DNA of 64,000 bases from a virus (lineage: Duplodnaviria; Caudoviricetes): IMG/VR virus record IMGVR_UViG_3300042554_001750; one strand, written 5' to 3'. The translations under genes were made by a program, and so were the position numbers. How positions within the stretch are numbered: position 1 is the stretch's first letter; each line of letters opens with the position of its first letter. Under the pieces are notes generated by a model. That model had not been told where the DNA came from. It saw nothing but the letters and a program-made list of their open reading frames with translations, and did not search any database. This document shows, piece after piece, positions 21,275 through 29,770 of the stretch.

Positions 21275-21646
21275 ATGGACGGTATTGTCATAATGCTATT
21301 GCTCCAAATAAAGCATTGGTATGCTGATTTTTGGATTCAAACATATCATCAAACGGTTTATAAAGGCGTTTATGGGAATCCTGTGGGTATCAGTCATACA
21401 TTAGAACATACCATTGGAACAGTTTTAGCATTGCTGATAGCTAACAGTTTTGTTCCTATATCAGTCTCCGTGATTATCTTACTATCGCTTTTGGATTTTA
21501 TAATCCACTATCATGTTGATTTTGTCAAAGTTAAATATGGCATTAAAGACAATAAAACCACAAGATACTGGCGAGAGTTTGGTCTAGACCAACTTGCACA
21601 CCAGCTTACATACATTTTAATAACCTACATTATAATTAGTCGTTGA
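21275..21646 (+). CDS. DUF3307-like membrane protein
   Basis: KHWYADFWIQ, HTLEH, HYHVDFVK, GLDQLAHQ. Confidence 0.75.
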   Translation: MDGIVIMLLLQIKHWYADFWIQTYHQTVYKGVYGNPVGISHTLEHTIGTVLALLIANSFVPISVSVIILLSLLDFIIHYHVDFVKVKYGIKDNKTTRYWREFGLDQLAHQLTYILITYIIISR

Positions 21647-21664
21647 GATTACTCCCCAGTTTTA

Positions 21665-21672
21665 TATAAATA
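21665..21672 (+). promoter_or_regulatory. T4-type late promoter box upstream of the curli-like operon
   Basis: Exact TATAAATA 35 bp before the csgF-like ATG. Confidence 0.65.
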
Positions 21673-21706
21673 CAAGTATACTAAAAACTAAATTTGGGAG
21701 TAATTT

Positions 21707-22177
21707 ATGAAAAGAATCCTATTAGGATTGTTGTTCATGCCGGTTGTAGCATCTGCACAACTTGTACAACAGTTTAAAAATCCGGCTTTCAATAGCCAGG
21801 GTTGGAGCAGCCATGCACTTACGATTGATAGTATAGAAAAAAGTCGCAAGGATGCTATAGCTGCCGAGAAAAAGGCTGAGTTAGCAGCATTAGAAGCAGC
21901 AGCACAAAATACACCTTTAGCTAGATTTATGAATTTGTTCAGCAGCCAAGTGTATGCGCAACTTGCTACTCAATTAAGTAATAATTTATTTCAGAACAAA
22001 TGTGCTGGAGTAGCCGGGCCTATTCCGGGTTGTGTCAATCCAACTACCGGACAGTTTCAATTAGACGGCAATACGGTTACATGGGTTAAAACAGATAAAG
22101 AAGTAACATTAACTGTTGTTGATGCCAAAGGTACAATCACAATTGTTAAAGTACCTATAGCAAGTTTTGGATTCTAA
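21707..22177 (+). CDS. csgF: Curli assembly protein CsgF-like
   Basis: Signal peptide then LVQQFKNPAF, similar to the CsgF N-terminal NPxF segment; directly upstream of csgG. Confidence 0.7.
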   Translation: MKRILLGLLFMPVVASAQLVQQFKNPAFNSQGWSSHALTIDSIEKSRKDAIAAEKKAELAALEAAAQNTPLARFMNLFSSQVYAQLATQLSNNLFQNKCAGVAGPIPGCVNPTTGQFQLDGNTVTWVKTDKEVTLTVVDAKGTITIVKVPIASFGF

Positions 22178-22178
22178 T

Positions 22179-22991
22179 ATGAAATATACTAAAATATTAA
22201 TTGCGTGTTTATCAGCCTTAGCATTTACTGGATGTAGTACTATAAGACCTATGCAGGATTTAGAAAGAACTACGGAACCTAGAATTGCTGAAAATATTAA
22301 TGAAAGTTTTAAGGATGTTGCAGCGCCTGCAGGCCCACCAGTTGTAGTGGCTGTGTATGGCTTCAAGGATCTGACAGGACAGCGTAAGCCTAGCACTACA
22401 CTAAGCAGTTTCAGCAGTGCAGTTACACAAGGCGCTGAAAGTTATCTAATTAAGAGTTTACAGGAAGTTGGCAACCGTCAGTGGTTTACTGTAGTTGAGC
22501 GTGTTGGTCTAGACAATCTGTTAAAAGAGCGTCAAATGATCAAACAAACCCGTGAAATCTATGATGGTGCCAATGCTAAGATGTTACCTCCTCTTGCACT
22601 AGCCGGAGTTATACTAGAAGGTGGAATCATTGATTACAATAGTCATACATTAACAGGCGGTACTGGTGCTCGTTGGTTAGGTATTGGACCATATACACAG
22701 TATACCCAAGATTTAGTTGTTATCAGTATGCGTTTAGTAAGTGTTCAAACCGGTGAAGTACTAACCACCGTAACCGTTGAAAGAGACCTACTAAGCACCG
22801 GAGAAGGTATAACAGCTTTAAGATTTTTCAATCAAGCAACTAAAGCTTTTGAATTTGACAGTAGCCAAACATACAACGAACCCGGCAACTATGCATTGCG
22901 TAGTGCCATAGAAACTGGGGTTGTTGAATTGATTCGCAAAGGAGAACGTCAGGGCCTTTGGAAGTACAAAACACCTGACACTAAAAAATAA
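22179..22991 (+). CDS. csgG: Curli secretion channel CsgG (lipoprotein)
   Basis: Lipobox FTGC; VAVYGFKDLTGQRKP, SSAVTQG, WFTVVERVGLDNLLKERQMI, LEGGIIDY. Confidence 0.9.
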   Translation: MKYTKILIACLSALAFTGCSTIRPMQDLERTTEPRIAENINESFKDVAAPAGPPVVVAVYGFKDLTGQRKPSTTLSSFSSAVTQGAESYLIKSLQEVGNRQWFTVVERVGLDNLLKERQMIKQTREIYDGANAKMLPPLALAGVILEGGIIDYNSHTLTGGTGARWLGIGPYTQYTQDLVVISMRLVSVQTGEVLTTVTVERDLLSTGEGITALRFFNQATKAFEFDSSQTYNEPGNYALRSAIETGVVELIRKGERQGLWKYKTPDTKK

Positions 22992-23015
22992 TAATAACAA
23001 GGGAGTATTCCTCAT

Positions 23016-23810
23016 ATGAAATTTAATAAAATATTTGCAGCAGCAATATTATCTTTAAGTGGGTTATCTGCATTTGCGCAAACTGCCGTGACACCACCCA
23101 CTGCACCCACTGTTCCCAACACAGTAACAGTTAGTCCCAATGCTACCACAGCATTGGGTAACAGCACAACCAACCGCATCTTTATTGATCAAAGTGGTTC
23201 CAATCCTGATGTGAACATGACACAAGATGGCAGTGGCAACAAGCAAGGAAGCGCACAAAGACCCATTTACTTGCGTGGTGCTGATCAGGTGATCATCACT
23301 CGTCAGATTGGCAACAACAATGAGATAGACTTAGAAGTTTCCAATCCCACAACAGGAGCCAGTGTGGGTGCCAAAGTTACCATTCAACAGATTGGCAACA
23401 GCAACAAAGTTGATGCAGCTTGCGGATATGGTAACAGCAGCACTGGCACAGCTCTAACAGGTTGCAAGAATGCTGACTTGAACTGGAAGTTCACTGGCAA
23501 CAGCAATGAGTTTCAGTTCCGTGCCAGTGGTGACGACATTCGCAGTGCTGTCACAGTAGCAGGCAATGGCAACAAGTTCTGGATTGACGCTGTGGGCAAC
23601 AAGCACAGTCAGACTCTAATGGTAACTGGTGACAACAATGAATTCAATCTAAGTCAAACCAGTACTGGCAGTGCTGGCAGCAGCATCTGGATTGATCAGA
23701 CTGGCACTGGCACCAAGTTCTTTGTGGCTCAAAGTGGAACTGTTGACAACGTTCTGAACATCAAGAGTGTTGCAACAGGAGGAACCTTTAATATAGTTCA
23801 GAAGAACTAA
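23016..23810 (+). CDS. Curlin-repeat secreted protein (CsgA/CsgB-like)
   Basis: Signal peptide; repeated xIxQxGxxN units (IDQSGSN, TRQIGNNN, IQQIGNSN, IDQTGTG). Confidence 0.7.
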   Translation: MKFNKIFAAAILSLSGLSAFAQTAVTPPTAPTVPNTVTVSPNATTALGNSTTNRIFIDQSGSNPDVNMTQDGSGNKQGSAQRPIYLRGADQVIITRQIGNNNEIDLEVSNPTTGASVGAKVTIQQIGNSNKVDAACGYGNSSTGTALTGCKNADLNWKFTGNSNEFQFRASGDDIRSAVTVAGNGNKFWIDAVGNKHSQTLMVTGDNNEFNLSQTSTGSAGSSIWIDQTGTGTKFFVAQSGTVDNVLNIKSVATGGTFNIVQKN

Positions 23811-23818
23811 GGATCATT

Positions 23819-25069
23819 GTGAAGCGACTACTTGTGGCCTTGTGTGGGCTAGTACTAAGCACAAGTGTACTAGCCAATGTGGGTTCTGTAGCAGAACTCA
23901 CGGGCACAGCCGTGATCAAGCGAGGCAAAACCACTGTACCAGTGACAAATGGCACAGTGGTTGAAATGAATGACCGAGTAGAAACTAAAAACGGTAAACT
24001 GAAAATTGTTTTCCGTGATAAAACCACTGTTAGTGTCACTGAAAGTAGTGCATTAGACATAGATGAGTTTGTGTATGATCCGAAAAATGCTGGTGCAGGC
24101 AAACTAGGTATAAAAGCTGCGGCGGGCACAGTACGATATGTCAGTGGTGCTATTGCTGGCGCTAATCCCAACGCTGTAAACATCAAAACACCCACAGCAG
24201 CCATCGCAGTTCGTGGTACAGATTTTGTCATGAGTGTGAATGAGATCGGTGGTAGCATGATTATCTTGATGCCACAGTGTGAGGAGCATGGTATAAATGT
24301 TCGTGGCATGATATGTGGTAGTGGCCGGATAGATGTTGAAAGTGGCGGAACAGTGGTGAACATGTCCAGACCCTATCAAGCCACACTAGTAGAAAAAACA
24401 GGCTCACCACCTAGTCCGCCCATTACAGTAAATCTATTCAATACACCAATTAGTAATAACTTGCAAATAGCTCCACCCAGAACCATGAGTGGTGGCAGTG
24501 TGGTAGCAGCAGCCCGGGCAGCAGTAGCACAAACTAGCAGTGGTGTTCGCAGTGCTGCAAGATCAAGTAGTGGCAGTGGTAGTTCAAGTGGCAGTAGTGG
24601 TTCAAGTGGCGGCGGAGCAGAACCTGCAGCAGCAAGCGATGCACCTCCAGCAGAGGCTGTTGTAGCCAGCGAATCAAATAAACCTGAAACGGTCGCCAGT
24701 AAAAGCGAAGAAACAACGACAGCAGTAGAAGCACCCAGTAATATCGTGTCTCTTGAACCAGTGCTTGAGCTAGTTACTAAAACAACAGAATCTGCCAAAG
24801 ATGAAAAAGCTGAACCCGCACCAACTGTGACAACCACTGAAACTAAAAGCGATGAAGATGCCAATCTCAGAAAGATTTATAGTGGAGCTTCACAATCAGG
24901 ATGGGGCTACGAAAGTTTGAGTAAAACCAGTCGTAACTATGCCAACATTGTGTTGCCTATCAATACTGCCATACAAATTTACATAGTTCAAGATAACATG
25001 GTTGCTGCTAAAAACTTTAGCAGTGGTCGCCCACAAGGGCAAATAGTAATCAATCAGACATTCAGATGA
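23819..25069 (+). CDS. FecR-domain exported protein with Ser/Ala/Glu/Thr linker
   Basis: Signal peptide; DRVET..IVFRDKT..IKTPTAAIAVRGTDF. Confidence 0.8.
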   Translation: MKRLLVALCGLVLSTSVLANVGSVAELTGTAVIKRGKTTVPVTNGTVVEMNDRVETKNGKLKIVFRDKTTVSVTESSALDIDEFVYDPKNAGAGKLGIKAAAGTVRYVSGAIAGANPNAVNIKTPTAAIAVRGTDFVMSVNEIGGSMIILMPQCEEHGINVRGMICGSGRIDVESGGTVVNMSRPYQATLVEKTGSPPSPPITVNLFNTPISNNLQIAPPRTMSGGSVVAAARAAVAQTSSGVRSAARSSSGSGSSSGSSGSSGGGAEPAAASDAPPAEAVVASESNKPETVASKSEETTTAVEAPSNIVSLEPVLELVTKTTESAKDEKAEPAPTVTTTETKSDEDANLRKIYSGASQSGWGYESLSKTSRNYANIVLPINTAIQIYIVQDNMVAAKNFSSGRPQGQIVINQTFR

Positions 25070-26889
25070 AACTCTTACTAGCATTCATATTACTGTTGTT
25101 TTCAAATTTCAGTCAGGCAGCTTTTACTGACATAAAGTTTGGCCGCTATCAAGTAGCCGACAGTCAGTGGAATGTGAGTGCCTGCTTGAATACAACCACT
25201 TGCCAGATATACAGCAAGAATCCAGGAACTATGTACAAGATACCCTGGACCAGTGGCCAGTGGAGTTGGCAAACTGGGCAGTATGTTCAGTTCAGCCTAA
25301 GTGGTAACGCCAGCTTTCCCTATGAAGGCAAAGTGTATAATAGTAACGGCACCTTAGCAGGTACTATAGGCATTGGCAAGATAGTAAACATGGGCCCTGA
25401 CTATTTCTTCTTTGTGGGCAGTGACAATAACACAGGTCAATTGTTCAGCGGTAGTAGTGGCATGAGTAACACCAGTGGTGTTAGTTGGACAGGAACATTG
25501 AATCCTACAACAGCACAAGCAGATGCTTATGCTGATGCAAGTTATAGCACAGTGCCTTTAGCGGCAGGACAAACTGCTACAGTAACTCCCAGTTCATCTA
25601 ATACACCTGCACCCAACCCCAGACCAGTTTGGCCTGTGATCAATCGTGCCGCCAATCAAGTTCAGTTTGGCAGTGGTCGCACTGGTGGCTGGAGTACATA
25701 CTGGCAAGATTGTTGTGGCAGTGGAGGCGGAACATGGGGGTCAATAAATTATGGTGGCAATGGAAACAGTTCAGCACAATTTTGGGCTACAACATATATG
25801 CGTTGGCCAGGAGCAGACAATGGGGTAAGCAGAACCATATGGTTTAGAACGGGTCTGGATGACGCCCATCAATTACGAATAAATGGTCAACTGGTCACTA
25901 GTGGTGGTTGCTGTAGTTGGGCATATGGGTCATATACTGCCAAGCCTGGCGAAATTGTAAAACTTGAGTTCTACAGTAATAACTCTGGCGGCAATGACTG
26001 GGTATTTCAGGTTGCCTGGGATCCGCAAGGTGATGGTAGTTATGAATTACTAGACAGCAACACAGTCGCACTACAAAGTGCCACAGATGGTGGTGGCGGT
26101 TTCTGGTACGGCAGCGGTATAACCACAGATCAAACTAATATCATGAACAGTGCCAGAACACGCACAGGAGCTGTAGCACTGGGCAATCGCATTGACCTAG
26201 AACAAAAAATAGGCACTAGTGGCAGTGTAGTTACAATAGAACAGACTGGTAACTATAATTTGATTCAGGGGTTAGGTGGCGGCAATGCCATCATTGATGG
26301 TCAGAACAACACACTAAACATCAAGCAAGGTGACACATTGGGTCGTAACTTGATTGAATTGGGTGTATACGGAAATACCAATACTGTTACAGTAAATCAA
26401 GCCCGTAATACTACCACTGGGTTGCAAGATGGCAGCGAAAGCGGCGGACATTATGCTGGCTTAGGCGTCAATGGTAATAGTAACACAGTCACAATTAGAC
26501 AGGGCAATGATGGTGGTATCAGTAGCGGACATTTCGGTTTAATGTACATCAAGGGTGATACCAACAACATGTCACTTACACAAGCCAACAACAATGACAA
26601 GAGAGCATTTATTAGTGTTGATGGTAACAATAATAATAGCATATTATCGCAATCAGGTTTGGGCAACCACTATATTGACTTAATGATGACTGGCAACGGT
26701 CACACAGCCAACATCACACAGTCAGGAAATGCCACACATAGAGCCACAATCAACTTGACCAATGCCGGCGGTTCAAGCATTCTAAACTTGATTCAGCAAG
26801 GTAGTACAGCACAACAATACAGTATTGTGCAGCAATGTGCTAACTTACAGGGCTGTAGTGTTACTGTAACACAAGGCAATGGACCGTAA
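25066..26889 (+). CDS. Secreted adhesin-like protein: N-terminal Trp/Gly-rich and PA14-like domains, C-terminal curlin repeats
   Basis: Signal peptide; FRTGLDDAHQLRINGQLV (PA14-like); about ten IxQxG/GNxN repeats in the C-terminal 230 aa. Confidence 0.65.
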   Translation: MKLLLAFILLLFSNFSQAAFTDIKFGRYQVADSQWNVSACLNTTTCQIYSKNPGTMYKIPWTSGQWSWQTGQYVQFSLSGNASFPYEGKVYNSNGTLAGTIGIGKIVNMGPDYFFFVGSDNNTGQLFSGSSGMSNTSGVSWTGTLNPTTAQADAYADASYSTVPLAAGQTATVTPSSSNTPAPNPRPVWPVINRAANQVQFGSGRTGGWSTYWQDCCGSGGGTWGSINYGGNGNSSAQFWATTYMRWPGADNGVSRTIWFRTGLDDAHQLRINGQLVTSGGCCSWAYGSYTAKPGEIVKLEFYSNNSGGNDWVFQVAWDPQGDGSYELLDSNTVALQSATDGGGGFWYGSGITTDQTNIMNSARTRTGAVALGNRIDLEQKIGTSGSVVTIEQTGNYNLIQGLGGGNAIIDGQNNTLNIKQGDTLGRNLIELGVYGNTNTVTVNQARNTTTGLQDGSESGGHYAGLGVNGNSNTVTIRQGNDGGISSGHFGLMYIKGDTNNMSLTQANNNDKRAFISVDGNNNNSILSQSGLGNHYIDLMMTGNGHTANITQSGNATHRATINLTNAGGSSILNLIQQGSTAQQYSIVQQCANLQGCSVTVTQGNGP

Positions 26890-26902
26890 TAAATAAAAGA
26901 CT

Positions 26903-28960
26903 ATGAAAAAAATCTTATTAAATCCCTGGACAGCACTTGCCACCCTCGTAATTGTGTTATTCGTCCGTATGTTAGATCCTACATTTGTAGAAAGTGTAAG
27001 GTTACGCTATTTTGATACACTAATTACTAGCCAACCGGATAAACCTGTCAGTGTTAGTGTTGTCAACATAGATGAAGCTAGTTTAGACAAGTATGGACAG
27101 TTTCCATTTCCAAGAGATGTATATGCTCAAATAATACAGGACATTTATAAACGAAACGCAGGATTAGTTGTATTCAATGTATTGATGCCTGAAAAGGACA
27201 GATTTAACAAAGATACCGTTTTAGCTCAAACATTAGAAAAAAATCCAGTTGTATTACCTGCATTAGGTAGCACTAAGAGTAAAAATACTGATGTTGGTAG
27301 CGCAGTTCAAATTGTTGGAAAAAATGTAGAAGGCAGTCTAGTACAGTACCCTGGATACATTACATCAGTTAATGAAATATCTGATAAGGCTGCAGGAGTT
27401 GGTATCGTTAATACTTTTCCAGAAGTTGACGGTGTTGTTCGTCGCATGCCATTAGTTATTATTGCAGGAGAAAATGTTCACCCTGCACTATCATTAGAAG
27501 CATTGAGAGTTATAGCACAAGATACAAAAATTCAAGTTAAAATTTCAGAGTTGGGCGTTGAAGCATTGCGTATTCCAAATTTTGCAAAAATCAAAACAGA
27601 CAATTTAAGTCGTATATGGATAGATTATAGTGGTAAACCCGAGCAGTATAGTTTAGTTGATATGCCAAAAGATTTTGAAGGCAAAGTTGTTGTGGTTGGT
27701 TTAAGTGCAGCTGGATTAGTAAATCCTGTGCCAACAAGTCGCGGAGAAATATGGCCACAAGAACTACAAGCCAGTGTAATGGGAACCATCTTAAATGATA
27801 CAGTAATCAGTCGTCCTAATTATGCCAATGAGTTAGAAATACTTGCAATATTAGTTGCAGGTATATTATTGATATTCTTAATGAGGTGGACATATGTTGG
27901 TATTGCGGCAACAGTTGTTACGGTTGGTGGTGTTATTGTTGGTAGCATCTATGCTTACAGTAACTTTTTATTCTTATTTGATAGTACTGCCTTCGCAGTT
28001 GGCGTTGGATTGGTCGCTCTGCACGCCTACATGGTCAAGTTCGTATCAGAATTCTTACAGAAACAGCAAATAAGAAAACAGTTCCAAAGTTATCTAAGCC
28101 CTGACTTAGTTGCTAAGTTAATCAAAGATCCTAGTTTATTAAAACTAGGCGGTGAGGAAAAAGAACTGTCTATTATGTTTACTGATGTTCGCGGATTTAC
28201 ATCAATCTCTGAACATTATGGTCGTGATGTACAAGGACTTACTAGCATCATGAACCGTTATATGACTGCCATGACTAGAACTATTCTAGAAACAGGTGGC
28301 ACATTAGACAAGTACATCGGTGACGCACAAATGGCATTCTGGAATGCACCATTAGATGAAACTAAGCACTGCAAAGATGCTGTTAAAGCCGCGTTAGAAA
28401 TGTTAGGAAGTTTAGATGGGTTTAATGCAGGTATTAAAGAAGAAGGGGTTCCTCCATTCGGTATGGGCATTGGTATTAACACTGGTGTTGTTGTGGTTGG
28501 CAATATGGGTAGTGAGCAACGCTTTGACTATACTTGCCTTGGCGACGCTGTTAATTTGGCTAGTCGTTTAGAAGGTCAATCTAAGAACTATGGCGTACTA
28601 ATTGTTCTTGGTCCTGTGACTGCTGAACGGTTAGGTGATGAATACTTTACATTAGAATTAGATTGTATTGCTGTTAAGGGTAAAAAAGAAGGTGTTAATA
28701 TCTATACAGTATTCTACAATCCTTCAACAAATGTTGAAATGGTAAAATGGAAAACAGCAAAAGAGTTACATGAATTAATGTTAGCTTATTATCGCAAACA
28801 ACAGTGGGATAAGGCAATAGAATTGATACACAGCCTTAAGGGAGAATTTAGTGGCGGCATGGATAATTATTATGATCTATGGCTTGAAAGAGTTGAAGAA
28901 ATGCGCAATGCTAATTTACCAACTGATTGGGACGGAGTGTTCCGGGCTACAAGTAAATAA
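26903..28960 (+). CDS. CHASE2-domain class III adenylate cyclase
   Basis: N-terminal TM, CHASE2 (VNIDEASL..GQFPFPR, DGVVRRMPL), three TMs, FTDVRGFT, DKYIGDA, DYTCLGDAVNLASRLE. Confidence 0.92.
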   Translation: MKKILLNPWTALATLVIVLFVRMLDPTFVESVRLRYFDTLITSQPDKPVSVSVVNIDEASLDKYGQFPFPRDVYAQIIQDIYKRNAGLVVFNVLMPEKDRFNKDTVLAQTLEKNPVVLPALGSTKSKNTDVGSAVQIVGKNVEGSLVQYPGYITSVNEISDKAAGVGIVNTFPEVDGVVRRMPLVIIAGENVHPALSLEALRVIAQDTKIQVKISELGVEALRIPNFAKIKTDNLSRIWIDYSGKPEQYSLVDMPKDFEGKVVVVGLSAAGLVNPVPTSRGEIWPQELQASVMGTILNDTVISRPNYANELEILAILVAGILLIFLMRWTYVGIAATVVTVGGVIVGSIYAYSNFLFLFDSTAFAVGVGLVALHAYMVKFVSEFLQKQQIRKQFQSYLSPDLVAKLIKDPSLLKLGGEEKELSIMFTDVRGFTSISEHYGRDVQGLTSIMNRYMTAMTRTILETGGTLDKYIGDAQMAFWNAPLDETKHCKDAVKAALEMLGSLDGFNAGIKEEGVPPFGMGIGINTGVVVVGNMGSEQRFDYTCLGDAVNLASRLEGQSKNYGVLIVLGPVTAERLGDEYFTLELDCIAVKGKKEGVNIYTVFYNPSTNVEMVKWKTAKELHELMLAYYRKQQWDKAIELIHSLKGEFSGGMDNYYDLWLERVEEMRNANLPTDWDGVFRATSK

Positions 28961-28963
28961 CCT

Positions 28964-28992
28964 TTGACTCATTGGTAAAAATATGTTATACT
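28964..28992 (+). promoter_or_regulatory. sigma70-type promoter
   Basis: TTGACT-17-TATACT. Confidence 0.65.
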
Positions 28993-29011
28993 ATAAAGAA
29001 TGGATTAATTT

Positions 29012-29770
29012 ATGCTACGATCATTATACAAAATATTTTTTATTGGTATACTACTTTCCTTATTTCCTAGCTGGGGCAGAGCCGATCCTCTGCCCAACAT
29101 CACCGCGCAAGCCTGGTTAATTGCTGATGTAAATGGTAATATTTTACAAGGTTCTAACACAACTGATGTCCGTAGTATAGCAAGTATTACAAAATTAATG
29201 ACTGTGATGGTTGTTATTGATGCACAACAAGACCTCAATGAAGTTGTCACCAAGAAGTTATTCAATAAAAATCTAACTAGAATGGATCTTATTGATTTAG
29301 CAATCGTTAAATCAGATAATGAAGCTTCAAAAATATTATGTGACAAGTACCCGGGTGGGTACAAAAGTTGCGTTCAGGCTATGAATGATAAGGCGCGTGG
29401 ATTGCAAATGTACAATACCAGCTTTACTGATCCAACTGGAAGAATGCATGACAATGTAAGCACTGCTCAAGACTTAATAAAATTAGTTATAGCCTCTAGC
29501 TCTTATCAAGTAATTGTTGATGCTAGCAAAAAGGATCATTTAAGTTACTCAACAGGAAAAAGAAATTCTATAGTATTCAACAATACTAATAATTTAGTCG
29601 GAAAAGGTTACGATTTTATTGTCACTAAAACCGGCTTCATAAACAAAGCAGGTGGCTGCATTGTGTTTATGATAGACACTGTTCGTGGAGTAAGAACTGT
29701 GATTGTATTGGGAAGTAAAAATACTAGAACTAGAATCCCCGAAGCTTTCTTGTTATCTACATTATACTGA
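29012..29770 (+). CDS. Peptidase S11 D-alanyl-D-alanine endo/carboxypeptidase (PbpG/DacA-like)
   Basis: Signal peptide; SxxK (ASITK), SxN (KSDN), KTG. Confidence 0.88.
   Translation: MLRSLYKIFFIGILLSLFPSWGRADPLPNITAQAWLIADVNGNILQGSNTTDVRSIASITKLMTVMVVIDAQQDLNEVVTKKLFNKNLTRMDLIDLAIVKSDNEASKILCDKYPGGYKSCVQAMNDKARGLQMYNTSFTDPTGRMHDNVSTAQDLIKLVIASSSYQVIVDASKKDHLSYSTGKRNSIVFNNTNNLVGKGYDFIVTKTGFINKAGGCIVFMIDTVRGVRTVIVLGSKNTRTRIPEAFLLSTLY

Follow-up and report, generated by a model that had tools for sequence, protein, structure and literature searches.

Can a phage bring into its host a signalling chain that runs from the cell envelope to a second messenger? This question is raised by a gene cassette in the IMG/VR virus record IMGVR_UViG_3300042554_001750, of which we analysed a stretch of 64,000 nucleotides (hereafter the window). 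At positions 23,819 to 28,960, the gene for a secreted FecR-domain protein is followed, with one gene between them, by the gene for an adenylate cyclase carrying a CHASE2 sensor domain, and curli secretion genes lie upstream. The initial annotation proposed that the FecR-domain protein relays fibre assembly or surface contact across the periplasm to CHASE2, so that the phage could reset host cAMP levels or lysis timing. The identity of the parts is secure, and the cassette is real and strongly conserved, while the relay is a plausible and reasonable hypothesis. The arrangement had been treated as unrecognised; it was in fact already published in 2022 (PMC9599517), and the locus is a diverged freshwater jumbo-phage copy of the published viral type VIII secretion system (T8SS, curli) module.

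The FecR gene starts at GTG with an AGGA ribosome site 5 nt ahead, and its product matches Pfam FecR at residues 52-146 (E 2e-9, above cut-off). The first 19 residues (23819-23875) form a Sec-type signal peptide ending in VLA, in which Ala19 is nearly invariant among 46 homologues. This peptide is the sole hydrophobic stretch of the protein, which is predicted to be exported to the periplasm. In the AlphaFold2 model, built with the 46 homologues, a β domain covers residues 20 to ~205 with pLDDT >90 and is followed by a linker of which Ser, Ala, Glu, Thr, Gly and Pro make up 74%; the model is disordered at residues 253-345. Both the cleavable-looking signal peptide and the long Ser/Ala/Glu/Thr linker of the initial annotation are therefore borne out. 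That annotation lacked a second folded β domain of ~70 residues at the C-terminus (pLDDT ~80). Two long antisense open reading frames (ORFs) across the gene (23788-24363 and 24376-24864, both on the minus strand) are the mirror image of its low-complexity linker and are unlikely to be genes.

The N-terminal domain resembles known signalling domains. Foldseek matched it to the C-terminal signalling domain of PupR (6ovk, E 6e-4), with the Bacteroidales anti-sigma factor BDI_1681 among the matches between 6e-4 and 2e-3. A sequence search of the PDB with the FecR protein returned low-complexity noise only, and the matches listed in the homologue search were all phage-like metagenome proteins. The FecR domain begins at residue 20, directly after the signal peptide, and the protein contains neither an anti-sigma domain nor a transmembrane segment. 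Neither Sigma70_r2 nor a TonB-dependent receptor barrel was found in the 108-kb record, which represents ~31% of the genome. Since anti-sigma domain, membrane helix, sigma factor and TonB receptor are all missing from the record, the protein, although it has a FecR domain, is not a FecIRA-type regulator, as had been proposed from the lack of a nearby sigma factor or receptor.

The C-terminal domain belongs to no Pfam family, and its comparison with 48,161 chains by VIA-align gave generic Ig-like sandwiches only (Z <=4). Its best match among the AFDB clusters is the C-terminus of another FecR-domain protein (E 0.047), and Foldseek gave a match to 5ix9 over 63 columns (E 7e-3). We also considered this domain as a curlin repeat. 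The assignment is unsupported, as the hhalign probability was 17% (P 0.0015 versus 0.025-0.24 for controls) and a pattern search of the FecR protein found zero repeats. A profile of the domain recovers the FecR proteins of the cultured phages Melnitz and HTVC008M at E ~1e-15. The same profile, run with the HMMER filters off, had no match at E <=1 among 80 bacterial cyclase loci, and no meaningful one among 20 alphaproteobacterial FecR loci. Among the loci sampled, the domain thus seems to be specific to phage cassettes, and the phage protein looks like a FecR domain of the bacterial type to which a second, cassette-specific domain has been added through a long flexible linker.

The cyclase matches Pfam CHASE2 (E 1.3e-41) and Guanylate_cyc (E 1.1e-19). 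Its hydrophobic segments, at residues 3-30 and 306-382, bracket CHASE2, so that the sensor domain faces the periplasm and the catalytic domain the cytoplasm; the predicted architecture is that of an inner-membrane receptor enzyme with CHASE2 between the membrane segments and ahead of the output domain. The best PDB sequence match of the catalytic domain is a bacteriophytochrome-adenylate cyclase fusion (6fht), followed by CyaB (3r5g) and CyaC (1wc0). The catalytic residues named in the initial annotation are all present, namely the metal-binding Asp428 (FTD) and Asp474 (IGD), the adenine-specifying Lys470 (DKY) and the transition-state pair Asn551 and Arg555 (NLASR). To these we add the second substrate-specifying residue, Thr544, which had gone unmentioned. 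All six line up with CyaB and CyaC, and none of them varies among 46 phage homologues. A Lys-Thr pair marks subclass IIIb of the class III cyclases, whose members are ATP-specific and often bicarbonate-responsive. Because the catalytic domain is intact and of the Lys-Thr type, the enzyme should be an ATP-specific class IIIb cyclase that makes cyclic AMP (cAMP). A search for cyclic nucleotide (cNMP)-binding domains was negative in the 108-kb record and also in five large genomes of related phages, of which three are 92-100% complete, so that the receptors for any cAMP would have to be those of the host.

Two further observations concern the cyclase gene. The last 80 residues of the protein (606-685, at 28718-28957) form a conserved tail with invariant Tyr630, Tyr656, Tyr657, Arg663 and Lys685; a Pfam scan of the whole protein assigned no family to this tail, which may be a regulatory or dimerisation element. 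The motif AATAAATA lies at 26888-26895, 8 nt ahead of the cyclase start, and in 15/79 relatives a [TA]ATAAATA box is present in the 120 nt that precede the cyclase gene, against a background of ~1%. This box may be an internal late-type promoter.

The linkage of the FecR, CsgG and cyclase genes is tight among phages. Around 44 cyclase genes with at least 6 kb of sequence on both sides, FecR and CsgG lie within 10 kb in 42, and in both exceptions (L007 and L017), as in a third related contig, they are found ~15 kb upstream on the same contig. Counted from FecR, in 38 loci with 8 kb on both sides, CsgG is present in all 38 and the cyclase in 36; one of the missing cases is again a 15-kb separation. 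The initial annotation had set beforehand frequent separation of these genes in relatives as a point against the relay, and in both counts they are instead kept together. FecR lies upstream of the cyclase on the same strand in 54 loci, and 11 loci have the csg-FecR block downstream of the cyclase in inverted orientation. As the genes still stand together in these 11 loci, the linkage survives rearrangement. FecR always directly follows the first curlin gene, with a gap to the cyclase that ranges from -3 to ~15,000 bp. The FecR stop overlaps or abuts the cyclase start in 11 loci, and elsewhere a curlin-repeat gene mostly lies between the two.

The source of the record (108 kb, estimated 31% complete) is a T4-like jumbo phage from a lake-water habitat. 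The window contains rIIA, an ATP-dependent DNA ligase and the PHROG 'RNA-binding protein' phrog_850 among its phage families, together with a ten-tRNA array. A scan of IMG/VR detected at least 598 viral contigs that encode full-length relatives of the cyclase, of which 80, at 54-80% identity, were kept; some of the cyclase-bearing relatives are genomes of 330-344 kb that are 92-100% complete. At least 2,906 of 8,000 scored candidates match the FecR protein. Near-identical DNA is found in some 15 or more separate metagenome studies of lakes and fresh water. The cassette ranks among the most widespread multi-gene additions of aquatic T4-like phages.

Parts of the module have been described in marine phages. 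CsgF/CsgG operons were reported in pelagimyophages by Zaragoza-Solas et al. in 2020 (PMC7029224), and Buchholz et al. discussed the CsgF and CsgG of Melnitz in 2022 as a possible lysis-timing pore (PMC9004378). The full viral curli module, including FecR and the adenylate cyclase, was described by Wittmers et al. in 2022 in pelagiphages and methylophages. They showed it in podophages as well as myophages, at each of the 65 ocean stations that they examined, and also in metatranscriptomes; the cassettes are without CsgE, and the cyclase has an alphaproteobacterial affinity (PMC9599517). Its authors interpret FecR in terms of iron regulation and suggest that curli might be regulated through the cyclase; the word 'CHASE' has 0 occurrences in their text. 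Reading the cyclase as a CHASE2 receptor, and FecR as a possible adaptor and not as an iron regulator, turns a vague notion of regulatory genes near curli into specific hypotheses of binding and activity.

FecR domains also recur beside CHASE2 sensors in bacteria. The nearest bacterial cyclases are 28-35% identical to the phage enzyme, the best being from a Rhizobiaceae genome. The upstream neighbours of 73 of the nearest bacterial CHASE2 cyclases include FHA (17), Pfam FecR (15) and HD-GAF (10) proteins; the HD-GAF neighbours could be cAMP phosphodiesterase partners. Neither CsgG, CsgF nor curlin was found by tblastn in 80 bacterial cyclase loci. From the other side, a search of the 20 best alphaproteobacterial FecR loci turned up a CHASE2 domain, a class III cyclase gene or both no more than 9 kb away in 8 cases; CsgG is present in 0/20. 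In a broader sample, CHASE2 was found in 100/151 Pseudomonadota, and a FecR domain lies within 1.5 kb in 2 of the 30 best loci. The bacterial FecR-CHASE2 pairing is real and far above chance, yet it is the arrangement of a minority (7-21% of sampled loci). FecR domains of the phage type are present in 137/401 sampled Alphaproteobacteria, often opening very long reading frames, which points to a general role of the domain as an N-terminal module in giant secreted proteins. The ORFs concerned (L182-L211) reach ~6,900 codons.

The reading that we tentatively favour, although we would put its chance at somewhat below even, is that the FecR protein serves as an adaptor between the curli pore and fibre half of the cassette and its cyclase half. 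It fits most of the observations, namely the type of the N-terminal FecR domain, the cassette-specific C-terminal domain, the length of the linker, the three-way linkage of the genes and their translational coupling. In this mechanism, the N-terminal domain, of a type that recurs beside bacterial CHASE2 sensors without curli genes, would contact or condition CHASE2, and the C-terminal domain, which is found only in the cassettes and co-varies with CsgG and CsgF, would dock on the pore or the fibre machinery. The linker of ~120 residues is long enough that it may span the gap between the two membranes. Synthesis of cAMP in the infected cell would then be set by the condition of the pore or the envelope, and the cAMP would be read by receptors of the host. 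Outside-in input to CHASE2 has a precedent, since CyaD1, CyaD2 and CyaK of S. meliloti perceive their signal via the outer-membrane barrel NsrA (PMC13001267). We are more doubtful about the identity of the signal, and consider it unlikely that this is specifically the state of the pore or fibre. Equally unlikely is the strictest form of the adaptor, a trans-periplasmic tether that converts pore occupancy or fibre growth into cAMP and that arose by the addition of one domain to an old bacterial FecR-CHASE2 pair.

Co-folding of FecR residues 18-226 with CHASE2 residues 22-314, using alignments, gave a score of 0.15 against a mark of 0.32, a result that speaks neither for nor against contact. Distance matrices were compared by partial Mantel tests in 59 non-identical cassettes. 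The FecR distances track those of CsgG and CsgF with both cyclase domains controlled (partial r 0.75 and 0.78, p 0.001), and the FecR C-terminal domain tracks CsgG with the N-terminal domain controlled (partial r 0.5, p 0.001). Such co-variation can reflect tighter physical linkage instead of contact. The result ties FecR to the pore genes and gives no support for FecR-CHASE2 contact.

Several points weigh against the adaptor. In the same 59 cassettes, no residual co-variation was detected between either FecR domain and the periplasmic domain of CHASE2 (partial Mantel r -0.01 and 0.04; p 0.54 for the former). This negative is a weak one, because the CHASE2 distances correlate weakly with everything, including the catalytic domain of the same protein. 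In the window, the FecR and cyclase genes are split by the gene of the 607-aa curlin-repeat protein (25066-26889). Some podophage cassettes have FecR but no cyclase (PMC9599517), and FecR must therefore have a role that is independent of the cyclase. The bacterial pairing is a minority pattern (15/73 and 2/30), with FHA and HD-GAF neighbours about as common. Finally, in the S. meliloti gene run clr, cyaD1, smc02177, which holds the one such neighbour pair with experimental data, the FecR-domain protein SMc02177, encoded beside cyaD1, is dispensable for the perception of the plant signal (PMC5498481).

The main rival reading is that of two separate jobs, in which FecR is only an accessory of the curli machine, for example a periplasmic stand-in for the absent CsgE gate or chaperone or a fibre anchor, while the cyclase senses something else and the two share a late envelope programme. 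We consider this possible, if on the unlikely side. It would account for FecR distances that follow CsgG and CsgF and not CHASE2, for the fixed place of FecR after the first curlin gene beside a variable gap to the cyclase, and for the restriction of the C-terminal domain to the cassettes. On the other hand, it leaves unexplained why FecR recurs beside CHASE2 cyclases and kinases in bacteria that lack curli genes, and why, in 11 loci, the end of the FecR gene overlaps the beginning of the cyclase gene. The FecR fold, moreover, is presumably unlike that of CsgE, which we count against a CsgE substitute. The podophage cassettes, which retain FecR, often without the cyclase, and the general lack of CsgE in the cassettes are in line with two jobs (PMC9599517). 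The order of events could also be reversed, with the cyclase as the sensor and FecR as an envelope effector downstream of cAMP. At the S. meliloti clr-cyaD1-smc02177 locus, SMc02177 is induced by cAMP and Clr and is needed for the phenotype, in addition to being dispensable for perception (PMC5498481). In the phage, however, the genes form a single operon and are often translationally coupled, so that co-production fits better than a regulatory cascade; together with the lack of a phage cAMP receptor in the record and the five large relatives, this makes FecR as an output improbable.

The CsgG/CsgF pore might instead be a channel for lysis timing or uptake, whose opening is tuned by the cyclase and FecR. 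Such roles were proposed for Melnitz (PMC9004378) and the pelagimyophages (PMC7029224), and a peptidoglycan peptidase gene follows the cyclase here. The two proteins of the cassette with clear curlin repeats, 5 in one and 7 in the other, nevertheless make fibre secretion the simpler reading, and we rate a lysis or uptake pore as quite improbable. The view of FecR as an iron (ferric citrate) regulator draws on the family name and the discussion in PMC9599517 only. The protein has no anti-sigma domain or membrane anchor, the record has no ECF sigma factor or TonB-dependent transducer, and related domains adjoin CHASE2 sensors or open giant secreted proteins, none of which has an evident link to iron, so we give this view almost no credence. 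Should the favoured adaptor reading hold, and cAMP be made in response to the state of the envelope, the cassette would be a clear case of a phage that brings its own second-messenger sensor into the host; if the tether itself were true, it would be a phage-encoded outside-in signalling chain.

The cassette lies in a run of eight tightly packed plus-strand genes at 21275-29770, flanked on both sides by minus-strand blocks (Table 1). The csgF gene is kept upstream of csgG in most related loci. The csgG ORF opens at TTG, and its real start is probably the ATG at 22179. The 264-aa curlin-repeat protein, in which a pattern count found five hydrophobic-x-hydrophobic-x-Q-x-G/S repeats, is likely the fibre subunit. 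The stop codon of the FecR gene and the start codon of the 607-aa gene share an ATGA, and homologues of the 607-aa protein occupy the same position in many relatives. The N-terminal ~370 residues of this protein are without a family match and are followed by seven curlin-type repeats in the C-terminal third; the N-terminal part may serve for display on the fibre. A T4 late promoter before csgF was considered and rejected. The motif TATAAATA is present at 21665-21672, but its count in the window is 7 against 6.3 expected by chance, and it is conserved before csgF in 2/66 relatives.

The DUF3307 gene is co-located in the closest relatives (43-57% identity), and 10/14 relatives have a TATAAATA box in the 120 nt that precede it, where the background is 0.45%. 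Wittmers et al. name a short gene as a histidine kinase (PMC9599517), and the DUF3307 gene may correspond to it, although the 123-aa DUF3307 product is without a kinase domain. The Peptidase_S11 gene is accessory, as it is found at the same position in few relatives only (L020-L022 and L067), and a sigma-70-like site precedes it at 28964-28992. Its product may remodel peptidoglycan for pore assembly or lysis.

Table 1 Genes of the plus-strand run and domains of the FecR-domain protein and the cyclase, with positions in the window.
Feature	Residues	Position	Strand	Basis
DUF3307 small membrane protein, 123 aa		21275..21646	+	Pfam DUF3307 E 2e-7; first gene of the plus-strand block
CsgF-like curli assembly protein, 156 aa, signal peptide		21707..22177	+	Pfam CsgF E 1.2e-8, above cut-off
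CsgG outer-membrane curli channel lipoprotein		22167..22991	+	Pfam CsgG E 3.6e-46; GC lipobox-like motif
Curlin-repeat protein, 264 aa, signal peptide		23016..23810	+	Pfam Curlin_rpt E 6.9e-5, above cut-off
FecR-domain protein, secreted, 416 aa		23819..25069	+	Pfam FecR; AlphaFold2; Foldseek
FecR β domain	20-215	23876-24463	+	AlphaFold2, Pfam
Ser/Ala/Thr/Glu linker of FecR protein, disordered	226-345	24494-24853	+	Composition, model
C-terminal β domain of FecR protein	347-416	24857-25066	+	AlphaFold2
Secreted curlin-repeat protein, 607 aa		25066..26889	+	ORF; sole Pfam match sub-threshold, DUF7529
CHASE2 class IIIb adenylate cyclase, 685 aa		26903..28960	+	Pfam; PDB sequence matches
CHASE2 domain of cyclase	14-322	26942-27868	+	Pfam
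Catalytic domain of cyclase	420-601	28160-28705	+	Pfam, PDB matches
Peptidase_S11 (D-Ala-D-Ala carboxy/endopeptidase-like), 252 aa		29012..29770	+	Pfam E 8e-37

Several known systems resemble the cassette in part. An operon of a LysM-FecR protein and a CHASE2 histidine kinase is conserved in Burkholderiales and P. aeruginosa (PMC5192318). As in the phage, it encodes a secreted FecR-domain protein (COG4254), located there directly before the CHASE2 sensor. However, the output is a histidine kinase there and a cyclase in the phage, and the partner has LysM, in place of which the phage protein has its cassette-specific C-terminal domain. The CyaD1/CyaD2/CyaK-NsrA-Clr system of S. meliloti likewise combines CHASE2 receptor cyclases with a neighbouring FecR-domain gene, whereas the cyaD1 locus is without curli genes and encodes a Crp-type regulator, of which none was found in the phage. 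The FecA-FecR-FecI and PupB-PupR systems have in common with the phage protein the fold of the FecR β domain, as seen in the match to 6ovk, and the general idea of carrying a signal across the periplasm from a protein in the outer membrane; the phage protein differs in being predicted as fully secreted, without an anti-sigma domain or a transmembrane helix.

The secretion half of the cassette corresponds to the curli system of E. coli (csgBAC/csgDEFG), with which it shares CsgF, CsgG and curlin-repeat subunits. CsgE, CsgC and CsgD were not among the phage cassette genes in the Pfam scan, and FecR and the cyclase are phage-side additions that are not in canonical operons. The closest likeness is to the viral T8SS module of marine phages, which, as here, is carried by T4-like phages between replication and structural genes. 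A megablast search of the cassette against GenBank phages gave no match, and Melnitz (MZ577097, host OM43) and HTVC008M (KC465899, host Pelagibacter) were reached by protein-level search only. In tblastn, the cyclase here is 38% identical to those of HTVC008M and Melnitz over 99% of its length, and FecR is 37-46% identical over its N-terminal half, with a C-terminal domain that is homologous too. The copy described here differs in its lake-water habitat, in the size of its complete relatives (about 330-340 kb), in the DUF3307 gene that precedes it and the Peptidase_S11 gene that trails it, and in its FecR linker, which is of low-complexity Ser/Ala/Thr/Glu composition and is Leu/Asp-rich in most relatives. 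Melnitz and HTVC008M nevertheless have the same six genes in an order identical to that found here, namely csgF, csgG, curlin, FecR, a second curlin-repeat protein and the adenylate cyclase, labelled in GenBank as CsgF, CsgG, curlin-associated, FecR domain protein or hypothetical, curlin-associated or hypothetical, and adenylate/guanylate cyclase.

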